Shown piece by piece: positions 2,597-58,843 of a stretch of 64,000 nucleotides of DNA. Made by a program: the position numbers and the translations under genes. Numbering within the stretch: position 1 is the stretch's first letter; the number at the start of each line of letters is the position of its first letter. The DNA is from a phage. The stretch is taken from the sequence record PX104378.1; one strand, written 5' to 3'. The notes under the pieces are model-generated. The model made no database searches and was not told the DNA's origin. It was given only the letters and a program-made list of their open reading frames with translations.

Positions 2597-2597
2597 A

Positions 2598-29284: not shown

Positions 29285-30232
29285 TTAGAACTCACCAATT
29301 TTCTGCAACATTTTAACTAACGCATTTGTTACAAAATAGTTATAAATTTTACCGCGTGGTGCTGGTTTAGATTTTTCCCATGACTCCAGAATCTGATTCT
29401 GAATATTGTCTGGGATGTAATCGAAATCAATAAGTTCGCGGTTTTCATCAAATCGACGTGCTTCTTCCTCTGTCATCAAAGACTTTGGATCTTCGGCATC
29501 GAAGATTTGCTCTAACCATTTGGTCGCAACTGGTTTAGCTCGTTCACCTTCCAATCGAGAGATAATAAAATCACTACGGCACTTGACAGAAGCTACACCG
29601 TCTTTTGCGTCACCCTTAACACATTTTACCATAAGGTCTTTGTACGGGCTACCGTATTTGCATTTCTTCCATGCTTTTTGTACTGGTGCCCACTGCTTCA
29701 CATTTTTGTATTTGTGCAACTGTGTGTAGTCACCATCGCCGGAGTTGATCAGCACCTGACGACCTTCTACAGAAAACTTTTTAGTTAGCACAGCGATTAT
29801 ATCATCCGCTTCAACTTTGTCAACCTTAATAACGTGATAAGGCATGTTCTCTTTAAACTCTTCGGTGATCTTATTGATCGCAGCAAAGATCATCTCCCAA
29901 TCACGCGGATCTGCGTCTCGTTTTTCCTTACGGTTGCGTTTATAGTAAGGGGCGATATCACGTCGCCAGTAACCTTTGCTTGAATCAAAAGCAAGTACCG
30001 TAATAGGGTATTGCTCTTTGAATTTTGTCATATTATAACGCATGGTGTCAAGAATAAGATGACGGATCATGCCTTCACTAATAGGATCTTCCGGTTTAAA
30101 GGTATGCGAGATAGTAGCAATCATAAGCTGCGACATATCAATCAAATGCACACCTTCCGGTAGTTTATCTTCTGGGTCATCGAAGAAATCATTAAGTGTA
30201 GCGGTAGTTTTTGTAAACGGGTTATACGTCAT
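29285..30232 (-). CDS. rnh: RNase H (5'-3' exonuclease / flap endonuclease)
   Basis: 315 aa; GYWRRD, YYKRNR, VEADDIIAVL, NSGDGDYTQLHKY.NVKQW, IDFDYIPDNI match recalled T4 RNase H. Confidence 0.9.
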   Translation of the reverse strand: MTYNPFTKTTATLNDFFDDPEDKLPEGVHLIDMSQLMIATISHTFKPEDPISEGMIRHLILDTMRYNMTKFKEQYPITVLAFDSSKGYWRRDIAPYYKRNRKEKRDADPRDWEMIFAAINKITEEFKENMPYHVIKVDKVEADDIIAVLTKKFSVEGRQVLINSGDGDYTQLHKYKNVKQWAPVQKAWKKCKYGSPYKDLMVKCVKGDAKDGVASVKCRSDFIISRLEGERAKPVATKWLEQIFDAEDPKSLMTEEEARRFDENRELIDFDYIPDNIQNQILESWEKSKPAPRGKIYNYFVTNALVKMLQKIGEF

Positions 30233-30234
30233 AA

Positions 30235-30420
30235 TTAAGTTCTCTCCACTCTCACAACAACATATTCGCCAAACGAGTTAGATACTTCACGATCATAACC
30301 GTACTTCTCCATAACTCGCAGAATTGCATTGTTTAATTCGGCACGGAAATAATTGTAATCCTTATCTGGGATTCTGTCAACTATCCATTTTGCACCGTCT
30401 GACAAATCAACTTTAACCAT
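30235..30420 (-). CDS. small hypothetical protein (61 aa)
   Basis: ORF directly downstream of rnh. Confidence 0.4.
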   Translation of the reverse strand: MVKVDLSDGAKWIVDRIPDKDYNYFRAELNNAILRVMEKYGYDREVSNSFGEYVVVRVERT

Positions 30421-30458
30421 AATATATCATCCTCTTTTGTTTCTATCAAGCCTTATTT

Positions 30459-30466
30459 TATAAATA
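30459..30466 (+). promoter_or_regulatory. T4-type late promoter
   Basis: exact TATAAATA about 29 nt upstream of gp34 ATG; AAGGAG SD at 30481. Confidence 0.7.
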
Positions 30467-30494
30467 TGAACATACTATAAAAGGAGACCCAATA

Positions 30495-33400
30495 ATGGCA
30501 GATTTTTCTCAACATTTCAAGGCCACATTTGGCTTTGACGCTGGTAATGAAAAGGTCGTCAATGTAGCATTGGCTGATAAGAATGTCAACACCGATGCGG
30601 TCAACGTTGAATTTTTCAATTACCATAATGGTATTACTCAGTATGACACAACTCGCGGTTATGATCAATACGGAACTACAATCTATCAAAACCGTCCGTA
30701 TTATGCAAAAGAAGATATCACAAAGCCAGCAGGTGATTTTGACCCGACTAAATGGCAAGCACTGCGCACCGATCCACGTTGGGATTATATTGCAGCAACT
30801 TCCGGTGATACTCCTTTAAAGTCTGGTGATTATATCGCAGCAGATGGTCAATTTGCAAACTTGACTTTCTCCATGCCAAACAAACCAGCAGAGGGAGACA
30901 CTATAACAGTAAAAGATATCGGTGGCAAGTGTGGTGTTAATGAATTATCGTTCTTGAGTTCAGGTCATGAGTTTTATCATAACGGTAATGTGTATAACCG
31001 CAAATGGTATTGCACTACCCCGTATGCAATGAACTATTTCATCTTTGTTCGTAATCGTTGGCATGTTTATCAGACAGGAACAGAGCCACGCGGTGTGTAC
31101 GCACAGCCAGCGATTGATGCTATTCAAATGCAGAATGGTGATCAGGTATTTCGTCGTAGTTCGTTGGGTAATATTACCTTAGTGCTTCCTAAGTTTGCCA
31201 ACAATGGCGACATGATCCAGACCACAGACCTTGACGGGTTAACCGCAACCAACCACGTTACGGTTAAAGTTCATGAGCACGCAGAAGAACAATCAATTGG
31301 CACGTTCGGATTAAAAGAGATTATCGGTAAGCGTAGCGGTCATGGTGTATTCATCTTTGATAAGCCTGAAAACTTATGGCGTGTGTGGGATGGTGATCAG
31401 TCTGTTCGTCTTAAACCGATCATCGATGACACTCGCTTGCAACCTAATAGTTATGTTGCTGTATTTGGTGATCATGATGTTACTCTGACGCTACCGACCA
31501 ATGTCGAGCCGGGTGATCGTATTCAAGTTTCTATGCAGTATATGCACGGAAACCAGAATTGCCGTATTATCACCGCCGCAGAGGATACAAAAATCCTTAT
31601 GCAGAAAAATATGGTTCAGTTTCCTAAGCGTAGCGAGTACCCATTCAACGGGACCGAGACATGGAAGGAAGTGTCTGAATTGTCGTTCAATGCGGCTAGT
31701 GATTATGTACCTTATCTGGAGTTCTCTTATTCAGAAGGTGATGATGGTAAAAAACACTGGTTGGTAGCACATGCTCACCCGATTGTAGAACGAGTAGATC
31801 CGACTCGTAAAGCGCGTGTTGGTGTAATTGCACTGGCTACCCAGACTGAAACGAATAAAAACCATGAAGAGAATCCTAGCGACGAAGTTGCAGTAACACC
31901 AAAAATGCTGGCTAATAAAACCGCCAACGAAACTCGACGCGGTATTGCTCGCATTGCGACTCAGGAGGAAACGCATCAAGATACTGGTTCCAGCTTCCTG
32001 GATGATGTTATCGTTACGCCTAAAAAGTTAAATGATTGTGTTGCTACCGAAGCCCGTCGTGGTGTGATGGAAATTGCAACTCAACATGAAACCAACGAAG
32101 GTTTAGACGATACTCGCGCAATAACTCCTAAGAAGTTAGAAGAACGTCGCGCGTCCGAGGATCTTGCTGGTATTGCTGAAATTGTTCAGGTAGGCGGTAA
32201 TGCTGCCGCTCGAAGGGGTGAAGCTGGCACGGGGATCTATAACATAAACGACCACGCTAAAATCGTTACTCCGCAAAACATCAACGAAGTCAAGGCGACA
32301 GAAACTTCCCGTGGTGTTGGCTATCTGGCAACTGACGCGGAAGTGCAAGGGGCTACAGAATCAACCCCGCAAGATGCTTTACTAATCACGACTCGCACGC
32401 TAACGAAACGTACTGCTACAGAATCGCGTACTGGTATCGCTGAAATTGCAACTCAGGAAGAAACAAACTTAGGTCAGAGTGATAACCATATCATCACGCC
32501 TAAAAAGCTGCATACTCGCCGCGCAACGGAAACTTTACATGGTTTAGCAGAAATTGCAACTCAGCCGGAATTTGACGCAGGTCGTGACGATGCTCGCATT
32601 TCTACCCCATTGAAGATTAAAACCTTCTTTGAGAATGCACAGCGTTTGAAAGTAGATCCGACTCAGGGGCTTAACCTTACTGGTGATTTGTGGCAAGGTA
32701 TCATGATCAGCGGTCTGGATGCAACCGAAGACACAAAAGGTGTCGCTAAAGTTGCTACTACTCAGCTTACGGATGCTGGTCAAGATGATACTACAATCAT
32801 TACTCCTAAAAAGCTGCAAGGCAAAAAGGCCACCGAAGGTAAAGAAGGTATTATCCGAGTTGGTACTCAAGCCGAAACCGTGGCTGGTGTACTGGCTAAT
32901 GTAGCAATTTCTCCGAAGAACTTCAAATATGTTGTTCAGACAGAGGATACATGGAAAGCAACCGAAGCGCGTCGTGGTTTCTTGAAAGTTGCTACTCAGG
33001 AAAACTGTTTTGTTGGTGATAATCTGCAAGGTTCTACTCAAGAACTAGGAAACTACCAGCATGACGGAATTGCTGTTACCCCGAAAGGATTAAACTACGC
33101 ACTTGCTAATTTCTTACCTAAGATGGCAACCGCTCAGAATAGTTTGAAATTGGGTAACGTAGAGGCCGCTAAATGGGCGCGTAGAGACATTGACCAGACC
33201 ATTGAGAGCAATTACACGTTTAATAAAAACGTTAACGTGAAGGGCGATTTAGAGTGCTTAAAATCTGGTTCCTTTGAAACTCTGTTTGTGACTAAGAACT
33301 CGACTGATGATCCGAGTAATGGTCATCTGGTGTTGGGTGAGCGTGGAGTTGACGGTCACACCGGAATTACTCTGCACGGCACAACCGCATCGGAAGGTAT

Positions 33401-34235
33401 GGAAAACTCATGGTCTATTATCGTTGGTGGTACTGGAACAGCGCAAGTTGTTGATAGTGACGCTATCGCTTTCGGTAAAATCAATGATGGTGGATTCGTC
33501 GAGCATTACGCCTTTGCTATGGAACACAATGGCGACGCGGCAGCATATAGAGACTTTATTGCAGGTCGTAACCTGTATGCGAAACAAGGCGGTTTATACA
33601 TTGTTGACCAGTCTAATCCGGCAATGACTCGTTCCCCAGATGGTATGCTGAATATCGGTCACGGTGGAAGTGTTAATATCAAGGCAGGTTATCAAACGTT
33701 AACTACAGAGATCGCCGGACAGAAATATCAGATCGTACACGCAGGAAACGCAGACGAAGTTCTTAACCGTCAGTTTGTTAAGAATGCTGGCGATACAATG
33801 GTCGGTAAGCTGATTATGGATAATGCGCCTATTGTTTCTGTTAAGCATGAAGCTAGCGCGGCAACCGCTCCGGCAATCGGTAACATCGGTTTCTGGAATA
33901 TGCGCGTTACTACCCAGAACATCAAAGAAACTTATCCAGAGAAGAAAAACGGTACTCTGATGCAATGGGGTACTGACGAGGACGGGCTTACCCAGCTTTG
34001 GTCCCCTGATGGTACTCATAAACATTATATCCGTTCCGGTACTGGTGGTCAATGGACCGCATGGGGTGAAATTTACACCAAACAGAATAAGCCTACCGCT
34101 CAGGAAATCGGGGCAGTAGTTGCAGAAGGTGGTTTAATGAACTCTATGACGGTTCGTGATTGGATCAAAGTTGGTAATGTTAAAATCATCGCCAATAATC
34201 TGACTCGTACCGTAGACTTTATCTGGGAAGACTAA
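30495..34235 (+). CDS. 34: long tail fibre proximal subunit gp34
   Basis: 1246 aa; N-terminus ...DAGNEKVVNVALADKNVNTDAVNVE...YDTTRGY matches recalled T4 gp34; internal GIAEIATQ...TPKKL repeats. Confidence 0.85.
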   Translation: MADFSQHFKATFGFDAGNEKVVNVALADKNVNTDAVNVEFFNYHNGITQYDTTRGYDQYGTTIYQNRPYYAKEDITKPAGDFDPTKWQALRTDPRWDYIAATSGDTPLKSGDYIAADGQFANLTFSMPNKPAEGDTITVKDIGGKCGVNELSFLSSGHEFYHNGNVYNRKWYCTTPYAMNYFIFVRNRWHVYQTGTEPRGVYAQPAIDAIQMQNGDQVFRRSSLGNITLVLPKFANNGDMIQTTDLDGLTATNHVTVKVHEHAEEQSIGTFGLKEIIGKRSGHGVFIFDKPENLWRVWDGDQSVRLKPIIDDTRLQPNSYVAVFGDHDVTLTLPTNVEPGDRIQVSMQYMHGNQNCRIITAAEDTKILMQKNMVQFPKRSEYPFNGTETWKEVSELSFNAASDYVPYLEFSYSEGDDGKKHWLVAHAHPIVERVDPTRKARVGVIALATQTETNKNHEENPSDEVAVTPKMLANKTANETRRGIARIATQEETHQDTGSSFLDDVIVTPKKLNDCVATEARRGVMEIATQHETNEGLDDTRAITPKKLEERRASEDLAGIAEIVQVGGNAAARRGEAGTGIYNINDHAKIVTPQNINEVKATETSRGVGYLATDAEVQGATESTPQDALLITTRTLTKRTATESRTGIAEIATQEETNLGQSDNHIITPKKLHTRRATETLHGLAEIATQPEFDAGRDDARISTPLKIKTFFENAQRLKVDPTQGLNLTGDLWQGIMISGLDATEDTKGVAKVATTQLTDAGQDDTTIITPKKLQGKKATEGKEGIIRVGTQAETVAGVLANVAISPKNFKYVVQTEDTWKATEARRGFLKVATQENCFVGDNLQGSTQELGNYQHDGIAVTPKGLNYALANFLPKMATAQNSLKLGNVEAAKWARRDIDQTIESNYTFNKNVNVKGDLECLKSGSFETLFVTKNSTDDPSNGHLVLGERGVDGHTGITLHGTTASEGMENSWSIIVGGTGTAQVVDSDAIAFGKINDGGFVEHYAFAMEHNGDAAAYRDFIAGRNLYAKQGGLYIVDQSNPAMTRSPDGMLNIGHGGSVNIKAGYQTLTTEIAGQKYQIVHAGNADEVLNRQFVKNAGDTMVGKLIMDNAPIVSVKHEASAATAPAIGNIGFWNMRVTTQNIKETYPEKKNGTLMQWGTDEDGLTQLWSPDGTHKHYIRSGTGGQWTAWGEIYTKQNKPTAQEIGAVVAEGGLMNSMTVRDWIKVGNVKIIANNLTRTVDFIWED

Positions 34236-34269
34236 TTAAAGGGGGGCGAAAGCCCCCTATGGGGTTATT

Positions 34270-35409
34270 ATGACACAAGAGATAGAATTACGCAATACTG
34301 GAATTAAGTTTGCGCATTTCGACGAAGACTCTGCGACATTTACCAGCATTTCAGAAAATAACTCTGTAATGTATAAACTTGAGGTTAGAGGATCTAATGC
34401 GGATTCTACCAAACCAGCAAGGATTAGATTTAATGGAGTGGAGATCGTTGGCACTGGCTATGAAAATGGCCTAAATTTTAAAGTTCTTACTCCAACTGGA
34501 CAATTACACGAAGAAAAGGTATTCTATGGTCGCGGTGCTGTTTTGGCAATGCGTGATTATCTTTCTTTGCTGAAAGGTGATTATATCATTGCGATGGCAA
34601 CGCATGGAGAATTGTTTGCAGATCCGGTAAGTGATGATGTATTCTCTAAGCTGGGATCTGTATCATTCCCGAATCACATTTTGTTACAGCAAATGCCTCG
34701 TGTATCATATGCAGCAATTTATTCTACGAAAATGGGTAAAATTGTTTGTGAGGGTATGCAAGCGACCCACGGGGAAGGGCAAGATTCATCTATACAAATT
34801 GAGAAAGTCTATGATACTATAGATGATCTTGCTATAACAGGAACACCACAACGATTTTTAGATTATCCGGTTGAGTATGTTAGCGAAGATGCCGAACATT
34901 TCGAGCTAATACAATGGCCTCATGATGAGATCAGCGCACCACTTGAAGATTTTAACATAAAGACAGGTGACAAACTATCAATATCTTTTGAATTGTTCCG
35001 TGATAGTGCCGCAGCCGCAGCCAACGTAACAGCGCGTTTCTATCACAACTACTTCACCGATGGACAATATAAAACTGGTGTTCGATACAATGCCAGCAAA
35101 AAAGATCAATGGGAAAAGTTTGAAGCCGTCTATACCGTACCGGAAGGAGTTGATAGTGTTACCACTGGTTGCGTTAGATATCCAACCAACTCAAATGAAG
35201 GTATTGTTAAAGTTAGAAACATACTAATAACGCCGATCAGTGGAGTTGTCAAAACGACTGGTCCTACTTCCTTTGGTGTTAACGGTGTTAGAACAACTCA
35301 CATTCAGGATAACGGTGATTTTACTAACCCTGTAATGAGTCTTCTTAAACTACCCAGAGACAATAAACATATCACATCCAACAACTTTAAAGAGTTCGAT
35401 GTTGATTAA
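34270..35409 (+). CDS. 35: long tail fibre hinge protein gp35
   Basis: 379 aa (T4 gp35 372 aa); position between 34 and 36. Confidence 0.6.
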   Translation: MTQEIELRNTGIKFAHFDEDSATFTSISENNSVMYKLEVRGSNADSTKPARIRFNGVEIVGTGYENGLNFKVLTPTGQLHEEKVFYGRGAVLAMRDYLSLLKGDYIIAMATHGELFADPVSDDVFSKLGSVSFPNHILLQQMPRVSYAAIYSTKMGKIVCEGMQATHGEGQDSSIQIEKVYDTIDDLAITGTPQRFLDYPVEYVSEDAEHFELIQWPHDEISAPLEDFNIKTGDKLSISFELFRDSAAAAANVTARFYHNYFTDGQYKTGVRYNASKKDQWEKFEAVYTVPEGVDSVTTGCVRYPTNSNEGIVKVRNILITPISGVVKTTGPTSFGVNGVRTTHIQDNGDFTNPVMSLLKLPRDNKHITSNNFKEFDVD

Positions 35410-35420
35410 CATTTTTAACA

Positions 35421-35450
35421 AGCCGATCCATGTGGTCGGCTTTATTTTTA
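35421..35450 (+). terminator. rho-independent terminator after gp35
   Basis: AGCCGA...TCGGCT hairpin followed by TTTATTTTTA. Confidence 0.5.
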
Positions 35451-35569
35451 TACAGTTGGTTAAAATGTAACCAAAACGAAGAAAGATCTTTAGAATATAG
35501 AAAATTTGTTTCGGTTAAAAATTAGTCAGTGCCTCCGGCACGTCGCGAAGCGATATTTTGTTAACATTC

Positions 35570-35577
35570 TATAAATA
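35570..35577 (+). promoter_or_regulatory. T4-type late promoter
   Basis: exact TATAAATA 34 nt upstream of gp36 ATG. Confidence 0.7.
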
Positions 35578-35610
35578 CTCGGAACTATAACTAATTTTTG
35601 AGGTTACTTT

Positions 35611-37101
35611 ATGGCAGATTTGAAACATGGATCTACTGTAGGTGGATCTCCCATTTGGACGCAAGGAAACTTGACGATCCAGCCAGCGGGGGACCAGCTT
35701 TTCTACAAAGGTCATAAAATCTATACCGCTTTTGATAGACCTTCGGCTACCGATTTTGATGCTGTTAGTGCATCCGAAGGTGGCACATTTCAAAAGCAAG
35801 TTCATTTCGAGGAAGGTTTAAGCGTAGGTAGCGCATCGGCTGGAGAAACCAAAAAGAACGGTATCTTTAAAGGCCAGAGCGATGCCGCTAATTTTGACGG
35901 CGTAAGCTGGGGTTTGCATTCATGGAAGTCAATCGGCTTTGTTAATGCCCGTGATGGCGTTATAATGGCGTATATTGACACCACAACGGGCGAATTTAAG
36001 TCTAAAGGGACTATCGAAGGGACAACCATTAAAGACACTGGTCAACGCGTCTATAGCCCTGTTAATAAACCAACGAATAATGATTTGGATTTAGTTTCCC
36101 GTCGCGGTGATACTCTCACAGGAACATATAATTTAAACACTGTCACTGTTAAACTATCGGTTGATTCGAAATTAATTGCAAGGGAACGTGATTTAATTAA
36201 TTTTGATGCGACTAAGATCTATTATGGTAACGTTCTTGACACGTTGGTCTTCCGAAGTAAAGATGAGCCTACCATTTTTGTTAATGGCAAAGAAGGTCGT
36301 TTTTATCACACCAACAATAAACCAACTAAAGCCGATGTTGGACTAGGCAATGTCACCAATGATGCACAGGTTAAACGTGCTGGTGATATTATGGAAGGTA
36401 ACTTGCAAGCGCCTAGAATGTTGGCGACAAACGATCCTGCTGGTCCTAATGAATTGGTTCGTTTGAGCTACTTTGAGAAAAAATCAATGGTAGCAAATCC
36501 AACAATCATTGGAAACGTTGATTGGAACACTCTTATTAATCGCGGTATCTATCGTGTGGAAAATGCTGGATCAGGTACTAATAAACCGTCTGATAGCTAT
36601 TATAACGGCGTTTTGATGGTATATCGCCCAGAAGATGCGGTCGGTACTCGTCGAATTGTTCAGGTTTATTATCCTGAATCTATTGACCATCCGATGTGCT
36701 GGCGTTCGTGTTCTAATGAATCATGGACTGCATGGAACTATGTAGATCACCGTAAATTAGCCGATATTCGCTATGTTAACGTAACTGGCGATACCATGAC
36801 AGGACCGTTAACTGTTCCTGCTGCAAATGGCGTTAGAACAGCTAAAACTAACTATAACGGGGATAACTGTTATGCGGCGTTAAGCGGTGCTGATGGCACT
36901 GCTATGATTCACCGCATTAGTGATATTAAAGGGACCGAAAAGCTGGGGATCACCCACGACTCAAAGGTCGTGTTTTTCCGTTCTAGAAACAATACTCAAA
37001 CCGTGGACCGCTATCAGCTTTATCATGAAGGCAATAAACCTACTCCGGCTGATGTTGGAGCAGTTCCACTTAATGCGGTGATTGATTTTGGTACTTTCTA
37101 A
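35611..37101 (+). CDS. 36: long tail fibre distal connector gp36 (enlarged)
   Basis: 496 aa; N-terminus MADLKHGSTVGGSPIWTQGN matches T4 gp36 MADLKVGSTTGGSVIWHQGN; more than twice T4 length. Confidence 0.75.
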   Translation: MADLKHGSTVGGSPIWTQGNLTIQPAGDQLFYKGHKIYTAFDRPSATDFDAVSASEGGTFQKQVHFEEGLSVGSASAGETKKNGIFKGQSDAANFDGVSWGLHSWKSIGFVNARDGVIMAYIDTTTGEFKSKGTIEGTTIKDTGQRVYSPVNKPTNNDLDLVSRRGDTLTGTYNLNTVTVKLSVDSKLIARERDLINFDATKIYYGNVLDTLVFRSKDEPTIFVNGKEGRFYHTNNKPTKADVGLGNVTNDAQVKRAGDIMEGNLQAPRMLATNDPAGPNELVRLSYFEKKSMVANPTIIGNVDWNTLINRGIYRVENAGSGTNKPSDSYYNGVLMVYRPEDAVGTRRIVQVYYPESIDHPMCWRSCSNESWTAWNYVDHRKLADIRYVNVTGDTMTGPLTVPAANGVRTAKTNYNGDNCYAALSGADGTAMIHRISDIKGTEKLGITHDSKVVFFRSRNNTQTVDRYQLYHEGNKPTPADVGAVPLNAVIDFGTF

Positions 37102-37105
37102 TTTT

Positions 37106-37129
37106 AGCGGGGATTATCTCCCCGCTTTT
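37106..37129 (+). terminator. hairpin after gp36 (attenuator or terminator)
   Basis: AGCGGGGA-TTATC-TCCCCGCT followed by TTTTC. Confidence 0.5.
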
Positions 37130-37171
37130 CTAAATAATATTATTCTAATAACCGTTTAAGGATTTTATAAA

Positions 37172-39940
37172 ATGGCAGATTTAAGCAGAATCCAATTTAA
37201 ACGCACTAGCACTAAAGGTCGTCGACCTGATGCTGGTACGATGAATCCGGGTGAGTTGGCGATCAACTTAGCCGACCAATATTTGCTTACTAAAAACGAC
37301 TCAGGTGCTATTATCAATTTAAGTTGTCCTCCGGTGTATGACCGCGATGTTACAATGGCTGGTAAAGTTAAAGGTAATAATTATATCTTAAGTAAAACCG
37401 CTAACTATCTGGAAGATCAGACAGCGCGAGATCTTAACTACTTTGGTGCTTTCCGTACCAATGGTCTTGATGGTTTTCTAGAACTAACGCTAAACGTTCC
37501 TCATTCTTCTGGTGTTCAGCATGGTCGAGGATTTACTTTCCAGTATGGTCACACTGGATCGCGAGTAGAAACCTATGGCTATAATAGAGAAGGTCAAAAA
37601 GCATTCAGCTATAAAATGTATCACGAAGGTGATAAACCAACTCCAGGAGAATTGAACGTTTATAGCAAACAAGAAGTAGATAGAATGTTTGTTAAGAACG
37701 TTAAACTTGCTACAGTTCCTGGTGATACAGTTGAAGGCTATTTTAAATTAGCAACTGCAATGATTCCACAAAATGGTCGTAGTGTATTTTTCCGTATTCA
37801 TGGTGGTAACGGATATAACGTTACTGCATACGATCAAGTTGATATTGTAGAAATTGTTATTCGCAGTGGAAATAATCGCCCTAAAGGTGTTAACGTTATT
37901 GCATATCGCCGAAATACAAACAAATCATTTGATGTTTTGGCTGTTAATACTTCTGGTGATAACTATGATATCTATGTGAAATATCAGCGTTACACTGATA
38001 ACGTTATTGTTGAATTTGGTAAAAGTGTTGATGTTAATCTGGTAGTTCATGACGTTCCAGATTTTGTTGCTGAACGTCCTGCTGGTGATAATGTTATTGG
38101 CGGTCGCGCGGTAACTCTTTTCAACACCGAAAATAAACGTGGTGTGTTGAGTTTTGACGATAACACACAAAATAGCTATGATATTGTTCACTTGAGTAAT
38201 GATAAAGGTACTGGACGAAAATATATTCGTAAATTCCGTAGCAACTATAATGAAATGATCTGGCATGAGACTGTTCAAGGTTCCAGTTATCGTCTGGCTA
38301 CTGGTAGCACTGATGCTCAGGAAATTATGACTATTGAATCTAGTAGCTCAATTGCTGGAACTCATAAAGGTAATATTATTTCTGGTCGTATGCTGTTAAA
38401 TGGCGGATCTAATGCCATTACACTACGCCGACCTGCTGGTCAATCTAATCATATTGCGTTTCAAGATAATCGTACTGGAGATATTACCCGTCAAGGATGG
38501 ATCGGTTATGCAAACGCCGATACTGACGTTTTTGAATGGTATAGTGATGTAGGTGGCAGTTCTATTCGTCAACATATCGACGGACAGATCGAATTTCAGA
38601 CAGGTAACATGAAGCGAGTTTATACCAACGGTCAATTCATTTCTTTATATGCTGATGGCTTCCGTACTGTATATGGTAACTATGGATCATGGTGGCGAAA
38701 TGACGGTAGTAACGTTTATCTGATGAGCACAAAATCAGGCGACGCTATGGGTCCGTGGAATACCTTTAGGCCGTTCATATACAGTCTCGCCAATGGAAAC
38801 GTTACTCTAGGTGGTAGCGATGCTGGCAATCATTTAATGCGTCTCAATAATGAAAATCGTCAAGTAGAAATAAATGCAACAACACATTTAGGGTCTCGAT
38901 TATATTGGGAACGTAGCGAAGGATCGGCATCTAGATTTTTTATTAAGAATTGGGGTAATGGAACTTCTCGCGCTCAAGTGTGGGAACTTGCTGACGAGAC
39001 AGGTTATCATGTATATTCTCAGCGAAACGACGCGGGTGTTCTTCAATTCCGTACTGCTGGTAATTTTGAGACTGGTGGTGATGCTCAAGTAAACGGGACT
39101 TTACGTGTCACCAATGTTCTTCGAACAGATAACCAAATTCAGATTTATCGCGATAACAACAAAGAACTCTGGTTTAAGGATGCTAATGGTACTAACCGTG
39201 GTGTTATCTGGGGTGATAGCACAGGTCAAATGCGCATTCGAAACTATAACAGCGGAGAATTTGACCATGTTTTCCAGACTGGTATGATTCGCTTAGAACG
39301 TGGGTATGCAAACGGTAGCGACCGTGGTTTGATTCGCGGAGAAGTACAAGGTGGTGCTTGGTCAGAATGGAAAACTCGCGCTGCTGGCTTATTGGTTGAC
39401 TGTCCAGCTGCTCAAACTTCCGCATATAACGTATGGAAAGCGACCAAATGGGGTTTAGACCACATCGCGGCAATGGGCGTTCATGTTCCTAGTGGTGTTA
39501 TTACTAATGCTATGGCACGTCTTCATATTCATACCACAAACTTTGACTTTAACGCATCTGGTGATTTCCAAGCTGGTCGCAATGGTAACTTTAACGATGT
39601 TTACATTCGCTCTGATGCTCGCCTGAAAATCAATAAGGAAGAGTATAAGGAGAATGCCACCGATAAAGTTAATCGCTTGACGGTATACACCTATGACAAG
39701 GTTAAATCTTTAACCGACCGTACTGTCATTGCTCATGAAGTCGGTATTATTGCTCAGGATCTTGAAAAAGAATTGCCGGAAGCAGTAACAACTTCTAAGG
39801 TCGGCGATCCTGATAAGCCAGAAGAGATCTTAACAATTTCTAACTCTGCTGTCAACGCTCTTTTAATTAAGGCGTTTCAGGAAATGAGCGAAGAATTGAA
39901 AGTCGTTAAAGCTGAACTAGCGGAACTTAAAAAGAATTAA
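37172..39940 (+). CDS. 37: long tail fibre distal subunit gp37 with C-terminal intramolecular chaperone domain
   Basis: 922 aa; N-terminus QFKRTS..GRRPDAG...GELAINL matches T4 gp37; C-terminal SDARLKINKEE...GIIAQDLEKELPEAV resembles peptidase S74 domain. Confidence 0.8.
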   Translation: MADLSRIQFKRTSTKGRRPDAGTMNPGELAINLADQYLLTKNDSGAIINLSCPPVYDRDVTMAGKVKGNNYILSKTANYLEDQTARDLNYFGAFRTNGLDGFLELTLNVPHSSGVQHGRGFTFQYGHTGSRVETYGYNREGQKAFSYKMYHEGDKPTPGELNVYSKQEVDRMFVKNVKLATVPGDTVEGYFKLATAMIPQNGRSVFFRIHGGNGYNVTAYDQVDIVEIVIRSGNNRPKGVNVIAYRRNTNKSFDVLAVNTSGDNYDIYVKYQRYTDNVIVEFGKSVDVNLVVHDVPDFVAERPAGDNVIGGRAVTLFNTENKRGVLSFDDNTQNSYDIVHLSNDKGTGRKYIRKFRSNYNEMIWHETVQGSSYRLATGSTDAQEIMTIESSSSIAGTHKGNIISGRMLLNGGSNAITLRRPAGQSNHIAFQDNRTGDITRQGWIGYANADTDVFEWYSDVGGSSIRQHIDGQIEFQTGNMKRVYTNGQFISLYADGFRTVYGNYGSWWRNDGSNVYLMSTKSGDAMGPWNTFRPFIYSLANGNVTLGGSDAGNHLMRLNNENRQVEINATTHLGSRLYWERSEGSASRFFIKNWGNGTSRAQVWELADETGYHVYSQRNDAGVLQFRTAGNFETGGDAQVNGTLRVTNVLRTDNQIQIYRDNNKELWFKDANGTNRGVIWGDSTGQMRIRNYNSGEFDHVFQTGMIRLERGYANGSDRGLIRGEVQGGAWSEWKTRAAGLLVDCPAAQTSAYNVWKATKWGLDHIAAMGVHVPSGVITNAMARLHIHTTNFDFNASGDFQAGRNGNFNDVYIRSDARLKINKEEYKENATDKVNRLTVYTYDKVKSLTDRTVIAHEVGIIAQDLEKELPEAVTTSKVGDPDKPEEILTISNSAVNALLIKAFQEMSEELKVVKAELAELKKN

Positions 39941-39982
39941 GGAAAACTCCCAGGGAAGGGAAACTACTAAGGAGAAACGGCT

Positions 39983-40222
39983 ATGGTCTATAATATCGTC
40001 ATTGGTGCTTTGTCTAATTTCGGAATGAAACTATTGTCAAAGTTAATTAGTGAAAAGATGCTCACTAAAATTTTCTTCTACTGCGCTCGTCGTCTTGCGG
40101 CTTATACCAATACGCCAATTGATGATCGTTTCGTGGAAGAACTTTATAAGGAGTTTAATAAAGATCAGTCAGAAGATAGTAACGAGCAAGATAAACCTAG
40201 TGATAGTCAAGTACCTAAATAA
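39983..40222 (+). CDS. hypothetical protein with hydrophobic N-terminus (79 aa)
   Basis: AAGGAG SD; sits where T4 has gene 38. Confidence 0.45.
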   Translation: MVYNIVIGALSNFGMKLLSKLISEKMLTKIFFYCARRLAAYTNTPIDDRFVEELYKEFNKDQSEDSNEQDKPSDSQVPK

Positions 40223-40255: not shown

Positions 40256-40912
40256 ATGCAAGTTTCTGAAAAAGAGAAAGACTTTGCTATCTCAAATGTC
40301 CTGCGCGCTATTTTCACAACTAAAAGCACGGAGTTGCTCGTACTTCGTGTTTTTGCTGCCGTCGTGTTGTCCATATTAGCATTTGTCGTTTATAGTAAAA
40401 ACGAGTTATTTGCGCTTTATAAAGAGACTCGTTATGAGACTTATGCTCACGTTCTCCAGGTAGAGAAAGACCGCAATTTTGATAATGCAGCACAGGAGCA
40501 GTTACAGATAGTTCATGTGTCGGCTGATGCCGATTTTTCTGCTGTTTTTAGTTTTCGTCCGAAAAACCTAAACTATTTTGTTGATTTGGTGGCATATGAA
40601 GGAAAGCTACCGCATACAATTGACGAAAAGAATTTAGGCGGATTCCCTATCAATAAAACGAGTGAAGAATATCGTAGGCATCTTTTAGGTAAATCCTATT
40701 TTACTGATAAAGATTTCCAGTATATTCCATCGAGGGAGAAAAAATTAGAGAATATCGATATAGGGTTTATGTATTCTTGTCCTATATTCAATCTCGATAA
40801 TGTCTATTCTGGTAGTATCGCCATTGCATGGAGGAATAAACCAGATATTGACATTGAGAATTTAGATACTCTTTGCAATCAATCTGCCAGAATCCTCGGA
40901 AGGATCAGATAA
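40256..40912 (+). CDS. t: holin
   Basis: 218 aa (same as T4 T); one TM segment; EQLQIVH.S..ADFSAV.SFRPKNLNYFVD..AYEGKLP and ARILGR match recalled T4 holin. Confidence 0.85.
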   Translation: MQVSEKEKDFAISNVLRAIFTTKSTELLVLRVFAAVVLSILAFVVYSKNELFALYKETRYETYAHVLQVEKDRNFDNAAQEQLQIVHVSADADFSAVFSFRPKNLNYFVDLVAYEGKLPHTIDEKNLGGFPINKTSEEYRRHLLGKSYFTDKDFQYIPSREKKLENIDIGFMYSCPIFNLDNVYSGSIAIAWRNKPDIDIENLDTLCNQSARILGRIR

Positions 40913-45161: not shown

Positions 45162-45554
45162 TTACTTACTAAATTTCTTTTTGGCTTCGTCTACTGCATG
45201 AGATGCCAGTACCGCCGCCGCATGTGCGCTTTTATCTGTGTTACAGAGAACACCCAAATAAACATCACGCCAAAGTTTAATCATCTCATAGATCATATCA
45301 ATATCATTTTCTTGTTTGTTGGCGATGCTACTTGTCGTTATCTGGTAAGGCAACGGTTTAATCTGTACTGGATCTGCCATTGGGCTAATCGGTTTCGGTT
45401 CGGTCATAATAGGTGCTGTTGGTGATGTTTTCCATACGCTATCATGCCACGGTTTAATCGTTGTATCGTACAGTTTGTAAGGATTTTTATCTGGATTAAC
45501 CATCCATGCATGATGATTACCCAAACCATTTGAAGTGATGCGTCGTTCAGTCAT
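45162..45554 (-). CDS. hypothetical protein (130 aa)
   Basis: ORF. Confidence 0.5.
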   Translation of the reverse strand: MTERRITSNGLGNHHAWMVNPDKNPYKLYDTTIKPWHDSVWKTSPTAPIMTEPKPISPMADPVQIKPLPYQITTSSIANKQENDIDMIYEMIKLWRDVYLGVLCNTDKSAHAAAVLASHAVDEAKKKFSK

Positions 45555-45557
45555 AAT

Positions 45558-45761
45558 TTATTTCCTCTCTGAAAACTCTTTCATCAAGTTGTCGATCTTT
45601 GCTCTGTGATCTGGCGTGTTTGTCATCTCTGCTAATTTGCTCAGAGATTCACTGGTGATCCGGTTGGATTCTTCCAGTGTTTCAACGACCATTGGCACAA
45701 TCTTTTTATTTTTGTACACAAATGCAATATAACCGCCTTCTGGATATTCTTTCATAATCAA
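45558..45761 (-). CDS. hypothetical protein (67 aa)
   Basis: ORF with 4-nt overlap to gene 52. Confidence 0.5.
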   Translation of the reverse strand: MIMKEYPEGGYIAFVYKNKKIVPMVVETLEESNRITSESLSKLAEMTNTPDHRAKIDNLMKEFSERK

Positions 45762-47119
45762 CCCTTCTTAAGTTCTTTAAGATCTTTCTTATATTCTTTC
45801 ATTGCGGTCGTCTTTGTCCAATACTCATATTCACTATGATGTTTATCGGCATCTTTGACCAGTCGATCATACTCTTCTTGAGTAACGCTATACAATGGCA
45901 TAGAAACGAGCTTATCGGCGTATGGACGCAGTTTTTCATGTCCATTGATGGATTGCATTACCTCGGCCTTTTTCTTGCCCTGTATCGCGATTTCGCCCTT
46001 AATTACGCGGTCGATAAATTCGGCTTTAGCCATTGCATAATTGTATGCTTCCAGTGTTTCCGCTTGCATCAATTCAATGCGTTTATCAACATACCCTAAG
46101 CGGATTTCGACGAATCGGCGAATCAGGTCGCTAGCTTTCTCGAATACTTCTACTAAACCACGTTCGTTAACTACTACGATATTCTGGGCTACTAACTGCG
46201 TTAGTTTAAAATCCTTCATGATTTGCTCATGTCGAGCGGATTCATCTTCGCTTTTGAAATAATCACGTTTCAGTGTTACCTCAAATCTGAATCCGTCCTT
46301 AGAGCAACGGTCATTATACGATACAATCAGATCTTTTTCTTCCAGTGCATCCAGTACCGCTACATATTCTTCACGGTCGAACTTATAAGGAACTTCTGAT
46401 ATTGTCAGTTTAGTCTTGCCGTTTAGTTCATATGTACCCTCAAGAATCACACCATCGCGATCATCTCGCGGGATAACTTTACCCGTGAATTTCGGGAATT
46501 GAACACTAGGTTCTTTATCCAGTTTTCCGGCAAGTGCTAGCTCTGTGCATTCAATAAGGCTTTCCAGTGAATGCGGTAAAATGTCAGTTTTATACCCTGT
46601 AGCAATACCACTAATACCATTAGCCAATACCATTGGCACAACTGGCAAGTAGAACGCTGGCGGGATGTGTTCCAGATCTTCGTGCTTAGGTGCGCAATTC
46701 ATATCTTTATAGATTTTAAAGAAGTTTTCATGCACACGAGCAAAGATATAACGTGCCGCACCTGCTTTCTGGACTAAACGCGATCCGAAGTTACCTTGAC
46801 CGTCAAGCAGTGGAGTATTATTGCTCCATGTATTTGCCATGAGTGATCCGGCTTCTACGGCATTAGTTTCCCCGTGGTGATACCCCAACTCAGCGACACC
46901 AGATCCAATATCTGCCATCTTACGGAATTTCTTACGGTCGCCTTTACTCTTTTGCAAAGCACATTCCATAACAAAGCGTTGCACTGGTTTAAGACCATCC
47001 ACTAATTGAGGAATCCCGCGTTCCTCGGCAGAATAGATCGCATATTCCTTAGCTTCATTATGTACAATGCTTTCAAGGCTACGGTAAGTAACTGATTTAT
47101 TCATCTTCACCTCATACAC
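45758..47119 (-). CDS. 52: DNA topoisomerase II medium subunit (GyrA-like)
   Basis: 453 aa; KPVQRFV, GELGYHHGE, LLDGQGNFGSR, RYIFAR, IPPAFYLP match recalled T4 gp52. Confidence 0.9.
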   Translation of the reverse strand: MYEVKMNKSVTYRSLESIVHNEAKEYAIYSAEERGIPQLVDGLKPVQRFVMECALQKSKGDRKKFRKMADIGSGVAELGYHHGETNAVEAGSLMANTWSNNTPLLDGQGNFGSRLVQKAGAARYIFARVHENFFKIYKDMNCAPKHEDLEHIPPAFYLPVVPMVLANGISGIATGYKTDILPHSLESLIECTELALAGKLDKEPSVQFPKFTGKVIPRDDRDGVILEGTYELNGKTKLTISEVPYKFDREEYVAVLDALEEKDLIVSYNDRCSKDGFRFEVTLKRDYFKSEDESARHEQIMKDFKLTQLVAQNIVVVNERGLVEVFEKASDLIRRFVEIRLGYVDKRIELMQAETLEAYNYAMAKAEFIDRVIKGEIAIQGKKKAEVMQSINGHEKLRPYADKLVSMPLYSVTQEEYDRLVKDADKHHSEYEYWTKTTAMKEYKKDLKELKKG

Positions 47120-47474
47120 GCTTACAAATCACATTCTTTACTTTATCAGATTTATCAGCCCAATCCAATAGCCATTTTAACGGAAGGATTGAAACAATAA
47201 ACGGGGCAGCAATCAAAGCAAACATGATACACCTGATAATCAGGAAAACGCAAGTGACAAAACTAGCGATAGTGATCCCGACAAAACAAAATACCATAGA
47301 AAACAGAGTAATGATATAGAAAGGCCAGAATACCCACTCCCGCATCTTAACGCCTTTGTATTCTCTGAATTGCTTAAAATCTACAAACAACTCTCGGATA
47401 GACGCGTACAGGACTGAAAAATCATCTTTCATTGCTCTGAATGAGCAATCTTCTATTTTAGAATGACCTAGCAT
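47112..47474 (-). CDS. membrane protein (120 aa)
   Basis: two to three hydrophobic segments (FWPFYIITLFSMVFCFVGITIASFVTCVFLII...). Confidence 0.5.
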   Translation of the reverse strand: MLGHSKIEDCSFRAMKDDFSVLYASIRELFVDFKQFREYKGVKMREWVFWPFYIITLFSMVFCFVGITIASFVTCVFLIIRCIMFALIAAPFIVSILPLKWLLDWADKSDKVKNVICKRV

Positions 47475-47476
47475 TA

Positions 47477-47770
47477 TTAACCGCCTTTAACCATTGATAC
47501 CGGAATTGTTTTCTGATTTGTGTATAACTGGCCTACTTCAATTTTTTCTTGAATCACCACGACGTTACAATATCCACTGTCTTTAAGTTTTCTGATAATG
47601 ACTCGCTTTTGTTCGTCGGTGATAGGATTGACTGTTCTCACCAATTCACCACAAATAATAGCACCATCTTTACAATTACCAGTAACTTTCATGCTACGAC
47701 CGTGAACAACAACCACGTCACCGTAAATCACATTTTCGTCGTCGTATTTGGTAATAATCGTGACCGTCAT
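47477..47770 (-). CDS. hypothetical protein (97 aa)
   Basis: ORF. Confidence 0.5.
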   Translation of the reverse strand: MTVTIITKYDDENVIYGDVVVVHGRSMKVTGNCKDGAIICGELVRTVNPITDEQKRVIIRKLKDSGYCNVVVIQEKIEVGQLYTNQKTIPVSMVKGG

Positions 47771-47785
47771 AATGTTATTCCCTCT

Positions 47786-47809
47786 AAGAAAGGCCGCGCA
47801 AAGCGGCCT
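47786..47809 (-). terminator. hairpin terminator
   Basis: AGGCCGC-GCAAA-GCGGCCT hairpin after stop of 47817..48143. Confidence 0.45.
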
Positions 47810-47816
47810 ATGTTTA

Positions 47817-51464: not shown

Positions 51465-51478
51465 AATATAATCCTCAC

Positions 51479-51736
51479 TTAATTAAAATCTTCTTTGTCC
51501 ATCTCTGCGTAGATTACATCCCACGCCCATAAATCAATAAACGCATTATATGTCACGGTGCAATCGTTGTCAATCACTTCTTTCGCATATTTCTTGATGT
51601 TTTCGTAGGAAACTTGCGGATCAATTTTGTTCTTCCGAAGGTGCGCATATTCATACCTCAAACATTTCATAAACAGGTCCATCGATTTCTTTTCTCGATG
51701 ACACTTGGCGAACATAAAATCAAAACTTCGACTCAT
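51479..51736 (-). CDS. hypothetical protein (85 aa)
   Basis: ORF. Confidence 0.45.
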   Translation of the reverse strand: MSRSFDFMFAKCHREKKSMDLFMKCLRYEYAHLRKNKIDPQVSYENIKKYAKEVIDNDCTVTYNAFIDLWAWDVIYAEMDKEDFN

Positions 51737-51746
51737 TTTCTACTCC

Positions 51747-51941
51747 TTACACATTTTCAATCACCCATTGCAGATGGGCTTCTGCGTCAACCAGTTCAGC
51801 GCGGCTTTTCTCTAAGCACTTGCTGTATTCTTTACGTTCCCAATCAGCAATTTCGTTTTTCAGGACTTCTTCATAGTAAGCAATTACGCCTTTCAGATCG
51901 GAAACTCTACGGCTTGCCAGTTCGATGTAATGGTTACGCAT
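51747..51941 (-). CDS. hypothetical protein (64 aa)
   Basis: ORF. Confidence 0.4.
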   Translation of the reverse strand: MRNHYIELASRRVSDLKGVIAYYEEVLKNEIADWERKEYSKCLEKSRAELVDAEAHLQWVIENV

Positions 51942-52182
51942 TTTGATTCTCCTTTGTTACTAGATAACGAATTTGGTCTTGCATTGCGATCAGTTCCCAG
52001 CGTGCTACTTTCATCATGGAAACTGACTCTTTGAACATAATATTAGCTTTTTCCTTTTCCCCTGTCAAGTAGATTTCTGAAATTTTTTCACAAAATTTTT
52101 GAGTTTCTTCATTCTTAAACGGTTTCATATAAGTCAACCTTTTGTTTTCGATGGGGATATTATGATATATCCCCGATCTCAT
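51934..52182 (-). CDS. hypothetical protein (82 aa)
   Basis: ORF. Confidence 0.45.
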   Translation of the reverse strand: MRSGIYHNIPIENKRLTYMKPFKNEETQKFCEKISEIYLTGEKEKANIMFKESVSMMKVARWELIAMQDQIRYLVTKENQNA

Positions 52183-52194
52183 GTCAACAACTTT

Positions 52195-52494
52195 TTAATC
52201 TTTTTTCAGTGCATCCATTACTCGCGCTGCGATCAGTTCTCGTAAGCACTGATAACCATGATATTTGATGGCAATGTCACGCAGATCATTAACCAGTTCC
52301 CGTACTTCATGGTCTTTCAAATCGTCTCTGTATTTCGATTTAACCGTGTCTTTAGGTGGATTGCGGATAACCTGAAAACCTTGTTCTGCAATCACTGCGG
52401 CTTCGCGCTGGCGTTCATGTTGTACTGTATTTTTGATCAGGTCTGCTTCCATGAACTTTGCCATACTCATCATCATGTTATTCTTTTTGCTCAT
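52195..52494 (-). CDS. hypothetical protein (99 aa)
   Basis: start at MSKKNNMMM with GAGGA SD downstream of promoter cassette. Confidence 0.45.
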   Translation of the reverse strand: MSKKNNMMMSMAKFMEADLIKNTVQHERQREAAVIAEQGFQVIRNPPKDTVKSKYRDDLKDHEVRELVNDLRDIAIKYHGYQCLRELIAARVMDALKKD

Positions 52495-52528
52495 CGTTAA
52501 ATCCTCATAAAAGAAAAGGGAGACTCCC

Positions 52529-52556
52529 ATTATAGAGAATCTCCCTTGTATGTCAA
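52529..52556 (-). promoter_or_regulatory. sigma70-type early promoter cassette
   Basis: TTGACA-N16-TATAAT directly after gp39 stop. Confidence 0.5.
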
Positions 52557-52559
52557 GTG

Positions 52560-54383: not shown

Positions 54384-54482
54384 TATTAAACCTCTTCATA
54401 ACATAACCATAACTTACTGCAACCGCCACAAAGACGGCTGCAACAATCATATTAAAAATTGAGTGATTGTCAAGTATATGAC

Positions 54483-54656: not shown

Positions 54657-54657
54657 A

Positions 54658-55326: not shown

Positions 55327-55327
55327 T

Positions 55328-55570: not shown

Positions 55571-55571
55571 A

Positions 55572-55739: not shown

Positions 55740-55749
55740 AATAATTTCC

Positions 55750-58210: not shown

Positions 58211-58271
58211 AATTGATTCTCCTTAGTTGGTATGTGTGTATTATTGTCTATCTGGTTTGTGCTGTCAACAC

Positions 58272-58775: not shown

Positions 58776-58808
58776 AATAAAAAGCCTCCAATCTTTCGAC
58801 GGGAGGCA

Positions 58809-58836: not shown

Positions 58837-58843
58837 CTAATTT

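Follow-up and report, generated by a model that had tools for sequence, protein, structure and literature searches.

Gene organization of the distal tail fiber locus

In the window (the whole 64-kb stretch of phage DNA that was analyzed), the genes for gp36, gp37, a 79-aa protein (Dc5), and holin t follow one another on the plus strand, and the following features were assigned.

35420..35442, plus strand: terminator-like hairpin just past the gp35 stop codon (consensus scan, 9-bp stem then a T-run; a pattern match only)
35570..35577, plus strand: T4-type late promoter box TATAAATA (exact match, 34 nt upstream of gp36)
35611..37101, plus strand: gp36, 496 aa (PHROG 16472 matched end to end)
36496..36750, plus strand: knob-like globular domain in gp36, about aa 296-380 (AF2 pLDDT about 69-85, the sole confident part of the model)
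37172..39940, plus strand: gp37, long tail fiber distal subunit precursor, 922 aa (PHROG 1699, E 1.6e-180)
38309..39571, plus strand: mosaic variable distal shaft of gp37, about aa 380-800 (28-68% identity to RB49-type TB34 gp37)
38471..38782, plus strand: Gp34_trimer-type domain of gp37, aa 434-537 (Pfam PF21446, E 5.3e-22)
39596..39610, plus strand: DVYIR, C-terminal pentapeptide of predicted mature gp37 and predicted gp38 docking tip (translation)
39611..39937, plus strand: Peptidase_S74 intramolecular chaperone, aa 814-922, catalytic Ser814 and Lys819 (Pfam, E 1e-11)
39983..40222, plus strand: Dc5, 79-aa ORF in place of g38 (PHROG 402, E 5e-20)
40256..40912, plus strand: holin t (Pfam Phage_holin_T, E 1.7e-61)

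Across the whole 4.6-kb locus, the DNA is 97.2% identical to that of Shigella phage JK32 (Krischvirus), the highest identity in the phage collection for the gp36-Dc5 stretch, and positions 1-14660 of RB49 align to window positions 49356-64000 at 96.6%. Judged by these alignments, the window is DNA of an RB49-like (Krischvirus) T4-type coliphage. The region very likely encodes the distal half of a long tail fiber that follows the plan of T2 and S16, not that of T4. The original prediction that this module differs from its T4 counterpart holds. The box at 35570 is one of only three exact matches to TATAAATA in the window, another of which lies at 30459, upstream of gp34; by analogy with T4 late promoters, it would function as a late promoter.

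The predicted enlargement of gp36 was confirmed (496 aa compared with 221 aa, or 666 nt, in T4). This joint protein, located at the near end of the distal half-fiber, matched PHROG 1425 ("hinge connector of long tail fiber distal connector," E 5.8e-55), its counterparts in JK32 and RB49 are annotated as gp36, and its gene position is syntenic. Against the Pfam family Phage_T4_gp36 (PF03903), it scored 21.4 bits with a cut-off of 26, and precomputed PF03903 matches are present in close gp36 homologs. A search of gp36 against PDB sequences gave no usable match, and an NCBIfam search of gp36, gp37, and Dc5 returned nothing. Because the full AF2 model of gp36 was poor (mean pLDDT 50), only the segment from 296 to 380 is interpreted, and this cautiously. 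In Foldseek, the knob segment gave local matches to the R-type pyocin fibers 6CT8 and 6CL5 (probability 1.0, 19-22% identity) and to the C-terminal region of T4 gp34, and distant sequence matches of gp36 carry the name "pyocin knob domain-containing." These matches hint that this segment may be a pyocin-knob-like domain.

The chaperone domain and shaft of gp37

The original prediction placed a self-cleaving, endosialidase-type chaperone domain at the C terminus of gp37, and the profile, the catalytic dyad, and the fold all agree with this assignment. With 45.4 bits, well over the gathering score of 22 and far more than chance would give, PF13884 (Peptidase S74) matched gp37 residues 814-873 over the entire profile (positions 1-58 of 58). 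The start given originally, about 39600, also agrees with the sequence, since DVYIR-SDARLKINKEE begins at 39596 and the Ser814 codon at 39611. Residues S814, D815, R817, L818, and K819 are invariant (28 homologs), and Ser814 and Lys819 are also kept in the gp37 proteins of T2, Mosigvirus, and Krischvirus phages. The Ser...Lys(i+5) catalytic spacing in gp37 (S814-D-A-R-L-K819) equals that of Ser1264/Lys1269 in T5. The S16 gp37 chain 6F45_A was matched across SDxRxK (E 1.7e-4), a match that surfaced only when the C-terminal 293 aa of gp37 served as the sole query; full-length gp37 matched only gp34-type domains among PDB sequences.

In the AF2 monomer model, residues 814-922 have pLDDT values of 75-94 and match the chaperone-domain fold (helix, beta-hairpin "tentacle," and C-terminal coiled-coil helix). 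The best Foldseek matches of this domain were the auto-processing chaperone domain of MyRF (7DC3, E 1.5e-5, TM 0.65-0.69 on the target) and the chaperones of endosialidase (3GW6) and GA-1 (3GUD).

The original placement of the cleavage at the Ser-Asp site has to be corrected, as members of the S74 family are cut on the N-terminal side of the catalytic Ser, and cleavage of gp37 is thus predicted between Arg813 and Ser814. T5 pb1 is cut at Thr1263|Ser1264, with Lys1269 as the partner residue (PMC4690869), and the cut is at DLNVS^SDRRIKK in S16 and at DVYIR^SDGRLKI in the fPS phages (PMC7917993). For RB49, gp37 is described as having a self-cleaving chaperone, after which gp38 attaches (PMC9569957); no processing experiments on a Krischvirus gp37 were found in the literature searched.

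The DVYIR-type motif has been described as the gp38 docking strand ahead of the cleavage site (PMC7917993). VYIR is invariant in the window, JK32, TB34, Bas46, and T2, and the residue before it is Asp, but Asn in T2. The gp37 stretch ahead of DVYIR has no detectable sequence similarity to S16 gp37, so that the docking geometry is extrapolated.

Over its full length, gp37 is 98% identical to its JK32 counterpart, and over its C-terminal ∼250-290 aa, identity is 58% with the gp37 of Mosigvirus and 34% with that of T2. The Gp34_trimer-type domain, which matched the T4 gp34 structures 4UXE and 5NXF by sequence, occurs in the gp37 of T2 and Mosigvirus as well. When gp37 is compared with that of TB34, residues 81-360 and 801-922 are 88-100% (mostly 95-100%) identical. 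The distal shaft (aa 380-800) is the most variable part of gp37 among Krischvirus phages, and that of the window is of the GEC-3S/JK32 type, not of the RB49/TB34 type.

Predicted location of g38 and candidate receptor-binding parts

The gene that follows g37 after a 42-bp spacer is not g38: as originally predicted, it is a 79-aa ORF, which matched PHROG 402 and no gp38 family. When gp38 of RB49, JK32, and T4 was compared with the whole 64-kb window by tblastn, the best E value was 0.76, and a glycine-motif scan of all window ORFs of ≥150 aa found no gp38. In relatives, g38 is present at a distance. RB49 encodes a 258-aa, polyglycine-rich gp38 at 45367-46143 of its record, and JK32 gp38 matches the Pfam families GP38 (E 3.7e-73) and Gp38_N (6e-18). 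One gp38 each was found in at least 19 different Krischvirus phages, including 5/5 of those that match the whole gp36-gp37-Dc5 stretch of the window. In 8/8 records checked for both coordinates, g38 lies 54-56 kb from g37, and relatives with g37-Dc5-t and g38 ∼55 kb downstream of g37 include JK32, GEC-3S, JEP8, Makalu_002, and at least 15 other Krischvirus phages. The right end of the window corresponds to RB49 coordinate 14660, ∼31 kb before the displaced g38 locus. If g38 of this phage has moved as in these relatives, it would be located ∼55 kb downstream of g37 and thus ∼31 kb past the right end of the window. No TATAAATA late promoter was found near upstream of the displaced g38 of JK32 when up to 1 mismatch was allowed.

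Displacement of g38 in RB49-type phages is already published (Trojet et al. 2011; Efimov et al. 2022), with RB49 g38 reported as "displaced to a distant locus" and a small ORF in its place (PMC3157838). In phage FL20, the order is g37-g38-Dc5-t, with g38 in its canonical place and the displaced site empty, so that each genome examined has exactly one copy of gp38. The FL20-type g38 sits in a Mosigvirus-like cassette. The position of g38 is polymorphic within the genus, a neat illustration of how adhesin cassettes can move.

It had been concluded from the lack of gp38 that gp37 itself is the receptor-binding tip. This conclusion is not supported, as a gp38 homolog is encoded elsewhere in the genomes of relatives and the window ends before that locus; the original prediction had itself named a gp38 homolog elsewhere in the genome as telling against it. 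A phage without gp38, in which the gp37 tip left by chaperone self-cleavage binds the receptor as in the L-shaped fiber protein pb1 of T5, is very improbable. It would fit with the failure to find either type of gp38 in the 64-kb window, with direct receptor binding by S74-bearing fibers such as T5 pb1 (PMC4690869), and with the variability of the distal shaft of gp37, but gp38 is present in every relative examined, the window stops ahead of the displaced locus, and DVYIR is the conserved gp38 docking strand common to gp38-bearing T2-type phages. In addition, the RB49 mutations that alter host range (E230K and Y231S) lie in gp38 (PMC9569957), and the use of Tsx or OmpA is set by Krischvirus Gp38 variants (PMC12032242). 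T2 and Mosigvirus have both, an S74 domain in gp37 and a gp38 adhesin encoded downstream, and such a chaperone does not stand in for gp38. Together, the gp37 chaperone and the gp38 adhesin are the common T2/S16 design and no exception to it.

The presence of a gp38 adhesin at the tip is compatible with further binding along the fiber. In such a dual-recognition fiber, the gp37 shaft (aa 380-800) and/or the gp36 knob would bind structures such as LPS or O antigen laterally and add to the host range. We consider this unlikely. The shaft is 28-68% identical between two Krischvirus types and is flanked by a conserved N-terminal part and the chaperone, the gp36 domain resembles R-pyocin fiber knobs, and RB49-like phages use several O antigens plus OmpA (PMC9569957). 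On the other hand, shaft mosaicism is common in T-even phages without any shown binding role (PMC3157838), the O antigen-related host-range mutations of RB49 are in gp38 and not in gp37 (PMC9569957), and the gp36 model has low confidence overall (mean pLDDT 50). More doubtful still is the speculative proposal that either the gp37 shaft and/or the gp36 knob form the extra lateral receptor sites of a multi-site adhesin or the phage lacks gp38 and uses a bare gp37 tip. If true, a multi-site adhesin might help explain how RB49-like phages cope with many O-antigen types.

The 79-aa ORF is annotated as Dc5 in RB49 and JK32, and the function of its family, PHROG 402, is listed as unknown. Dc5 comes immediately after g37 and is transcribed the same way, and its distant homologs end the tail fiber operon in Felixounavirus and Kolesnikvirus, as might be expected of a fiber assembly or attachment factor that replaces or assists gp38. 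A relationship to T4 gp38, or a relic of it, was suggested by a 19-aa tblastn match that includes a 7-residue identity, EELYKEF. This match has an E value of 1.2, is not conserved in the Dc5 family, and was taken as chance. Scans with Pfam and PHROG (E up to 10) found no family shared by Dc5 with T4 gp38, lambda Tfa, or T2 gp38, and thus no similarity at the profile level. Moreover, gp38 and Dc5 occur side by side in FL20, the family adjoins lysis genes elsewhere (endolysin in a Vibrio phage, holin t here), and the conserved N-terminal half of Dc5 is hydrophobic, which suggests a membrane protein. A role of Dc5 in the fiber is therefore very improbable.

Proposed assembly and relation to known fibers

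Based on the above comparisons, a chaperone-bearing gp37 capped by a gp38 whose gene is displaced is the best explanation of this locus, with a probability of about 0.9. In this model, the late promoter at 35570 would drive gp36, gp37, and probably Dc5, and the distal rod would consist of gp36 (496 aa) and gp37. The last 109 residues of gp37, the S74 chaperone, are predicted to nucleate trimerization of a triple beta-helix. After correct folding of the tip, the Arg813-Ser814 bond would be cut by the Ser814/Lys819 dyad and the chaperone would leave, exposing a flat trimeric gp37 tip that ends in DVYIR. One monomeric gp38 would then dock on this tip via its N-terminal helical bundle, and its polyglycine-sandwich loops would bind the receptor (OmpA, Tsx, or certain O antigens in relatives). 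In this lineage, g38 would have moved to a site ∼55 kb downstream of g37 that is surrounded by small ORFs of the early region, and Dc5 would occupy its old place ahead of holin t.

The long tail fiber module is thus an ordinary, already described RB49-like type that leaves current understanding unchanged, and the value of the analysis is mostly cautionary, as a reading limited to one window can take a relocated gene for a missing one. When a T-even gp37 bears an S74 chaperone, this points to the common gp38-capped fiber, not to a gp38-free one. Receptor specificity is not predictable from this locus alone, as the deciding adhesin (which recognizes OmpA, Tsx, or O antigen in relatives) is probably encoded elsewhere in the genome.

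Among known systems, the RB49/Krischvirus locus (JK32, GEC-3S, Phi1, and JSE) has the same order, 34-35-36-37-Dc5-t, and the same S74 chaperone on gp37 as the window, and the JK32 proteins are of equal length (496 aa for gp36 and 922 aa for gp37). In these Krischvirus genomes, g38 is ∼55 kb from g37, whereas the window itself ends before that position. The shaft of gp37 (aa 380-800) differs from the RB49/TB34 type (28-68% identity).

Fibers of the T2/T6/S16 type (PDB 6F45) have a gp37 with a C-terminal intramolecular chaperone and are capped by a gp38 polyglycine adhesin. The window shares with them the SDxRxK dyad of the S74 chaperone, the DVYIR/NVYIR strand before the cut, and the Gp34_trimer domain, and in its relatives, gp38 carries the Pfam domains GP38 and Gp38_N and shows 59% identity to T2 gp38. 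In contrast to this type, g38 does not adjoin g37, gp36 has more than double the length, predicted mature gp37 is shorter (813 aa compared with ∼1242 in T2), and the third docking Trp of T2 and Mosigvirus gp38 is Tyr in Krischvirus gp38.

The T4 distal fiber resembles that of the window in its overall locus order, in the late promoters before genes 34 and 36, and in the summed length of gp36 and mature gp37 (1309 aa here and 1247 aa in T4). T4 gp37, however, lacks S74, binds its receptor directly with its terminal Collar and needle domains, and depends on gp38 and gp57A as separate chaperones; Pfam found Collar and Phage_fiber domains in T4 gp37 but neither of them in the window gp37, and no T4-type gp38 (PHROG 105) was found in the window.

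The chaperones of endosialidase K1F, T5 pb1, and the GA-1 appendage (MEROPS/Pfam S74; 3GW6, 4UW8, and 3GUD) belong to the same domain family and have the same fold as that of gp37, with which they share the Ser...Lys(i+5) dyad and a C-terminal position after a trimeric beta-helix. In these proteins, enzyme activity or receptor binding resides in the matured tip itself, whereas the tip of the window gp37 is predicted to be a socket for a separate adhesin.

The late-gene block and its relatives

The tail-fibre genes and their neighbours, from gp34 to holin t, each identified in Pfam and PHROG scans, form a block of late genes on the plus strand.

Features of the late-gene block (window positions)
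30459, T4-type late promoter box TATAAATA, upstream of gp34
30495-34235, plus strand, gp34 (1246 aa; Pfam/PHROG scans)
34270-35409, plus strand, gp35 (379 aa; Pfam/PHROG scans)
3' of gp35, terminator-like hairpin
35570, T4-type late promoter box TATAAATA, upstream of gp36
35611-37101, plus strand, gp36 (496 aa; Pfam/PHROG scans)
37172-39940, plus strand, gp37 (922 aa; Pfam/PHROG scans)
39983-40222, plus strand, 79-aa ORF (PHROG 402; annotated Dc5 in JK32 and RB49)
40256-40912, plus strand, holin t (Pfam/PHROG scans)

Over the 4.6 kb from gp36 to the small ORF, identity reaches 97.2% with Shigella phage JK32 and 96.5% with GEC-3S, and RB49, Phi1, and JSE show 90-94% identity over most of this region. 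Based on these identities, the phage can be assigned to Krischvirus, the genus of RB49-like "pseudo-T-even" phages.

Within 30001-40000, GC and AT skew flip sign between the plus-strand tail-fibre block and the flanking minus-strand early/middle genes, consistent with a transcription-linked strand bias. The centre of gp34 (about aa 440-840, 31800-33000) contains many copies of a ∼40-aa repeat, G-I/V-A-x-I-A-T-Q-x-E ... I-T-P-K-K-L, and four stretches of this region match PHROG 910, a whisker-like profile named "tail collar fiber protein".

The chaperone domain of gp37 and its predicted cleavage

The original prediction was borne out in all its factual statements about the sequence, and the endosialidase-type chaperone that it assigned to the C terminus of gp37 is a correct call with strong support. 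A profile search matched Pfam Peptidase_S74 ("chaperone of endosialidase") to gp37 residues 814-873 with 45.4 bits (E 1e-11; gathering score 22), and the dyad residues and the fold agree. Residues V810, R813, S814, D815, R817, L818, K819, and N821 do not vary in an alignment of 28 database homologues. AlphaFold2 modelling of residues 701-922 gave a pLDDT of 75-94 across the chaperone part, and the model most closely resembles the auto-processing chaperone domain of MyRF (7DC3, E 1.5e-5) and the chaperones of the K1F endosialidase (3GW6) and the GA-1 appendage (3GUD). In addition, the C-terminal 293 aa match the S16 gp37 chain of the gp37-gp38 crystal structure 6F45 (E 1.7e-4), in an alignment spanning SDxRxK. 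Because T4 gp37 lacks S74 and contains a Collar and a Phage_fiber domain, the module differs from that of T4, as had been proposed.

In T5 pb1, the scissile bond is Thr1263-Ser1264, and the serine is activated by Lys1269 (PMC4690869). By analogy, we predict that gp37 is cut between Arg813 and Ser814 and not, as first suggested, at Ser-Asp; the segment DVYIR-SDARLKINKEE begins at 39596, with the Ser814 codon at 39611. In S16, the last 113 residues of gp37 reportedly form a chaperone that, once the protein has trimerised, cuts itself off at DLNVS^SDRRIKK and uncovers the surface on which gp38 docks; in related phages the aligned site is DVYIR^SDGRLKI, with DVYIR proposed as the docking tip (PMC7917993). 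The corresponding stretch in the window is exactly DVYIR^SDARLKI; VYIR is unchanged in all five aligned gp37 sequences, preceded by Asp in four of them and by Asn in T2. After such a cut, the mature gp37 would have 813 residues and the freed chaperone 109.

The gp36 protein was correctly described as larger than its T4 counterpart (496 aa versus 221 aa). Because gp36 and the predicted mature gp37 together comprise 1309 aa, versus 1247 aa in T4, where gp37 has 1026 aa, the bigger gp36 mostly compensates for a shorter gp37 and does not indicate a longer rod. Its full-length relatives (492-508 aa) form a small family. The AlphaFold2 model of gp36 is of poor quality overall (mean pLDDT 50), with residues 296-380 at about 69-85; the resemblance of this segment to R-type pyocin fibre knob domains and to the T4 gp34 C-terminal region hints that a globular domain may be inserted here.

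Comparison with gp37 of the RB49-type phage TB34 shows 88-100% (mostly 95-100%) identity in residues 81-360 and 801-922 and only 28-68% in residues 380-800. The N-terminal part and the chaperone therefore frame an exchangeable distal shaft, and the variant in the window is of the GEC-3S/JK32 type.

The position of gene 38

The absence of gp38, with gp37 itself as the receptor-binding tip, had been the biological conclusion drawn from this module, and it is not supported, as a gp38 encoded elsewhere in the genome is the known state in the Krischvirus lineage (RB49, JK32, and others). No gp38 match was found in the whole 64-kb window by tblastn with RB49, JK32, or T4 gp38. In RB49, gene 38 (g38; 45367-46143, minus strand) encodes a 258-aa product with typical polyglycine motifs, of which tblastn found full-length copies in JK32, GEC-3S, JEP8, Makalu_002, ELT4, and at least 14 other different Krischvirus phages. 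The JK32 copy (47040-47816; 3001-3777 of locus L003, the JK32 stretch around it) is annotated "tail fiber adhesin" and matches Pfam GP38 (E 3.7e-73) and Gp38_N (E 6e-18). The g37-g38 spacing was 54-56 kb in the eight records in which the two positions were compared. As the right end of the window corresponds to RB49 coordinate 14660, the expected g38 locus lies ∼31 kb past it, where a 259-aa ORF would be flanked by counterparts of RB49 ORF078c and ORF080c at about 94.7-95.5 kb in window numbering; on this comparison, the "missing" gene is probably a window-edge effect, and the phage's own genome is predicted to carry g38.

At its displaced site g38, a virion gene, is surrounded by small ORFs of the early region. 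Upstream of the JK32 copy (L003 2880-3010), there is a ribosome-binding site and a terminator-like hairpin, and no TATAAATA late promoter was found there with up to one mismatch allowed. Of three docking Trp residues described for S16-type gp38, the JK32 and RB49 proteins (the latter encoded at 45370-46143 of locus L002, the RB49 record) retain two (W7 and W20); the third position is Tyr (PAYMS), versus Trp in T2 and Mosigvirus (PGWMS, PCWMS).

Not all members of the genus have g38 in the same place. In Escherichia phage FL20 (PP400781), also a Krischvirus, the gene order is g37-g38-Dc5-t (L012 1-1531), and the gp37 C terminus and gp38 N terminus resemble those of Mosigvirus; at the RB49-type displaced site (L013 5837-6410), the flanking small ORFs abut and g38 is absent. 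FL20 and the RB49-type genomes examined therefore have one gp38 each, at either site, and the canonical FL20 cassette with its empty displaced site suggests exchange with Tevenvirinae. Because only a 42-bp spacer separates g37 from Dc5, the window is of the RB49 type (g37-Dc5-t), for which a displaced g38 is predicted.

Dc5 was rightly judged not to be gp38, as it belongs to PHROG 402 and had no match related to either gp38 kind in Pfam/PHROG scans. This widespread family consists of small proteins whose hydrophobic N-terminal half is conserved and which carry the motif T-x-T-x-x-D-D-x-F; distant homologues occur in Felixounavirus, Kolesnikvirus, Moazamivirus, and Vibrio phages (loci L007 4998-5183, L008 4004-4210, L009 4001-4189, and L010 3992-4198). 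Family members either close a tail-fibre operon or adjoin a lysis gene: in Vibrio phage 1.061.O an endolysin gene lies upstream, and in the window holin t lies downstream. Dc5 may be a membrane protein or one linked to lysis. The exact seven-residue string EELYKEF is common to Dc5 (40100-40156) and T4 gp38 (tblastn E 1.2), a striking find in the former g38 slot; this is probably chance, because it has no profile support and is not conserved across the Dc5 family.

Comparison with T2- and S16-type fibres

The displaced g38 of the RB49 lineage was reported by Trojet et al. (PMC3157838), and the arrangement, including the small ORF in its slot, is already known from papers of 2002-2011 and from renewed study in 2022-2025. 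Chaperone cleavage followed by gp38 attachment has been described for RB49, as have the host-range mutations E230K and Y231S in gp38 (Efimov et al. 2022, PMC9569957), and Krischvirus Gp38 variants set the use of Tsx versus OmpA (PMC12032242). The sole available genetic evidence on host recognition points to gp38. This adhesin is a monomeric cap with an N-terminal helical bundle and receptor-binding polyglycine-sandwich loops (PMC6851490).

For the window phage, we infer cleavage and docking by analogy with these systems. In the best overall explanation, at a probability of about 90%, the gp37 chaperone would autocleave after trimerisation, baring the docking surface, and a gp38 monomer encoded at the displaced site would then cap the trimer via its N-terminal helical bundle, with the polyglycine-sandwich loops binding the receptor. 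The genes for T2 gp37 (S74 at 1243-1300) and Mosigvirus Bas46 gp37 (S74 at 957-1015) each have a gp38 adhesin gene downstream, and the C-terminal region of the window gp37 is 58% identical to Mosigvirus and 34% identical to T2. The commonest T-even design pairs an S74-bearing gp37 with gp38; such a gp37 is no substitute for gp38.
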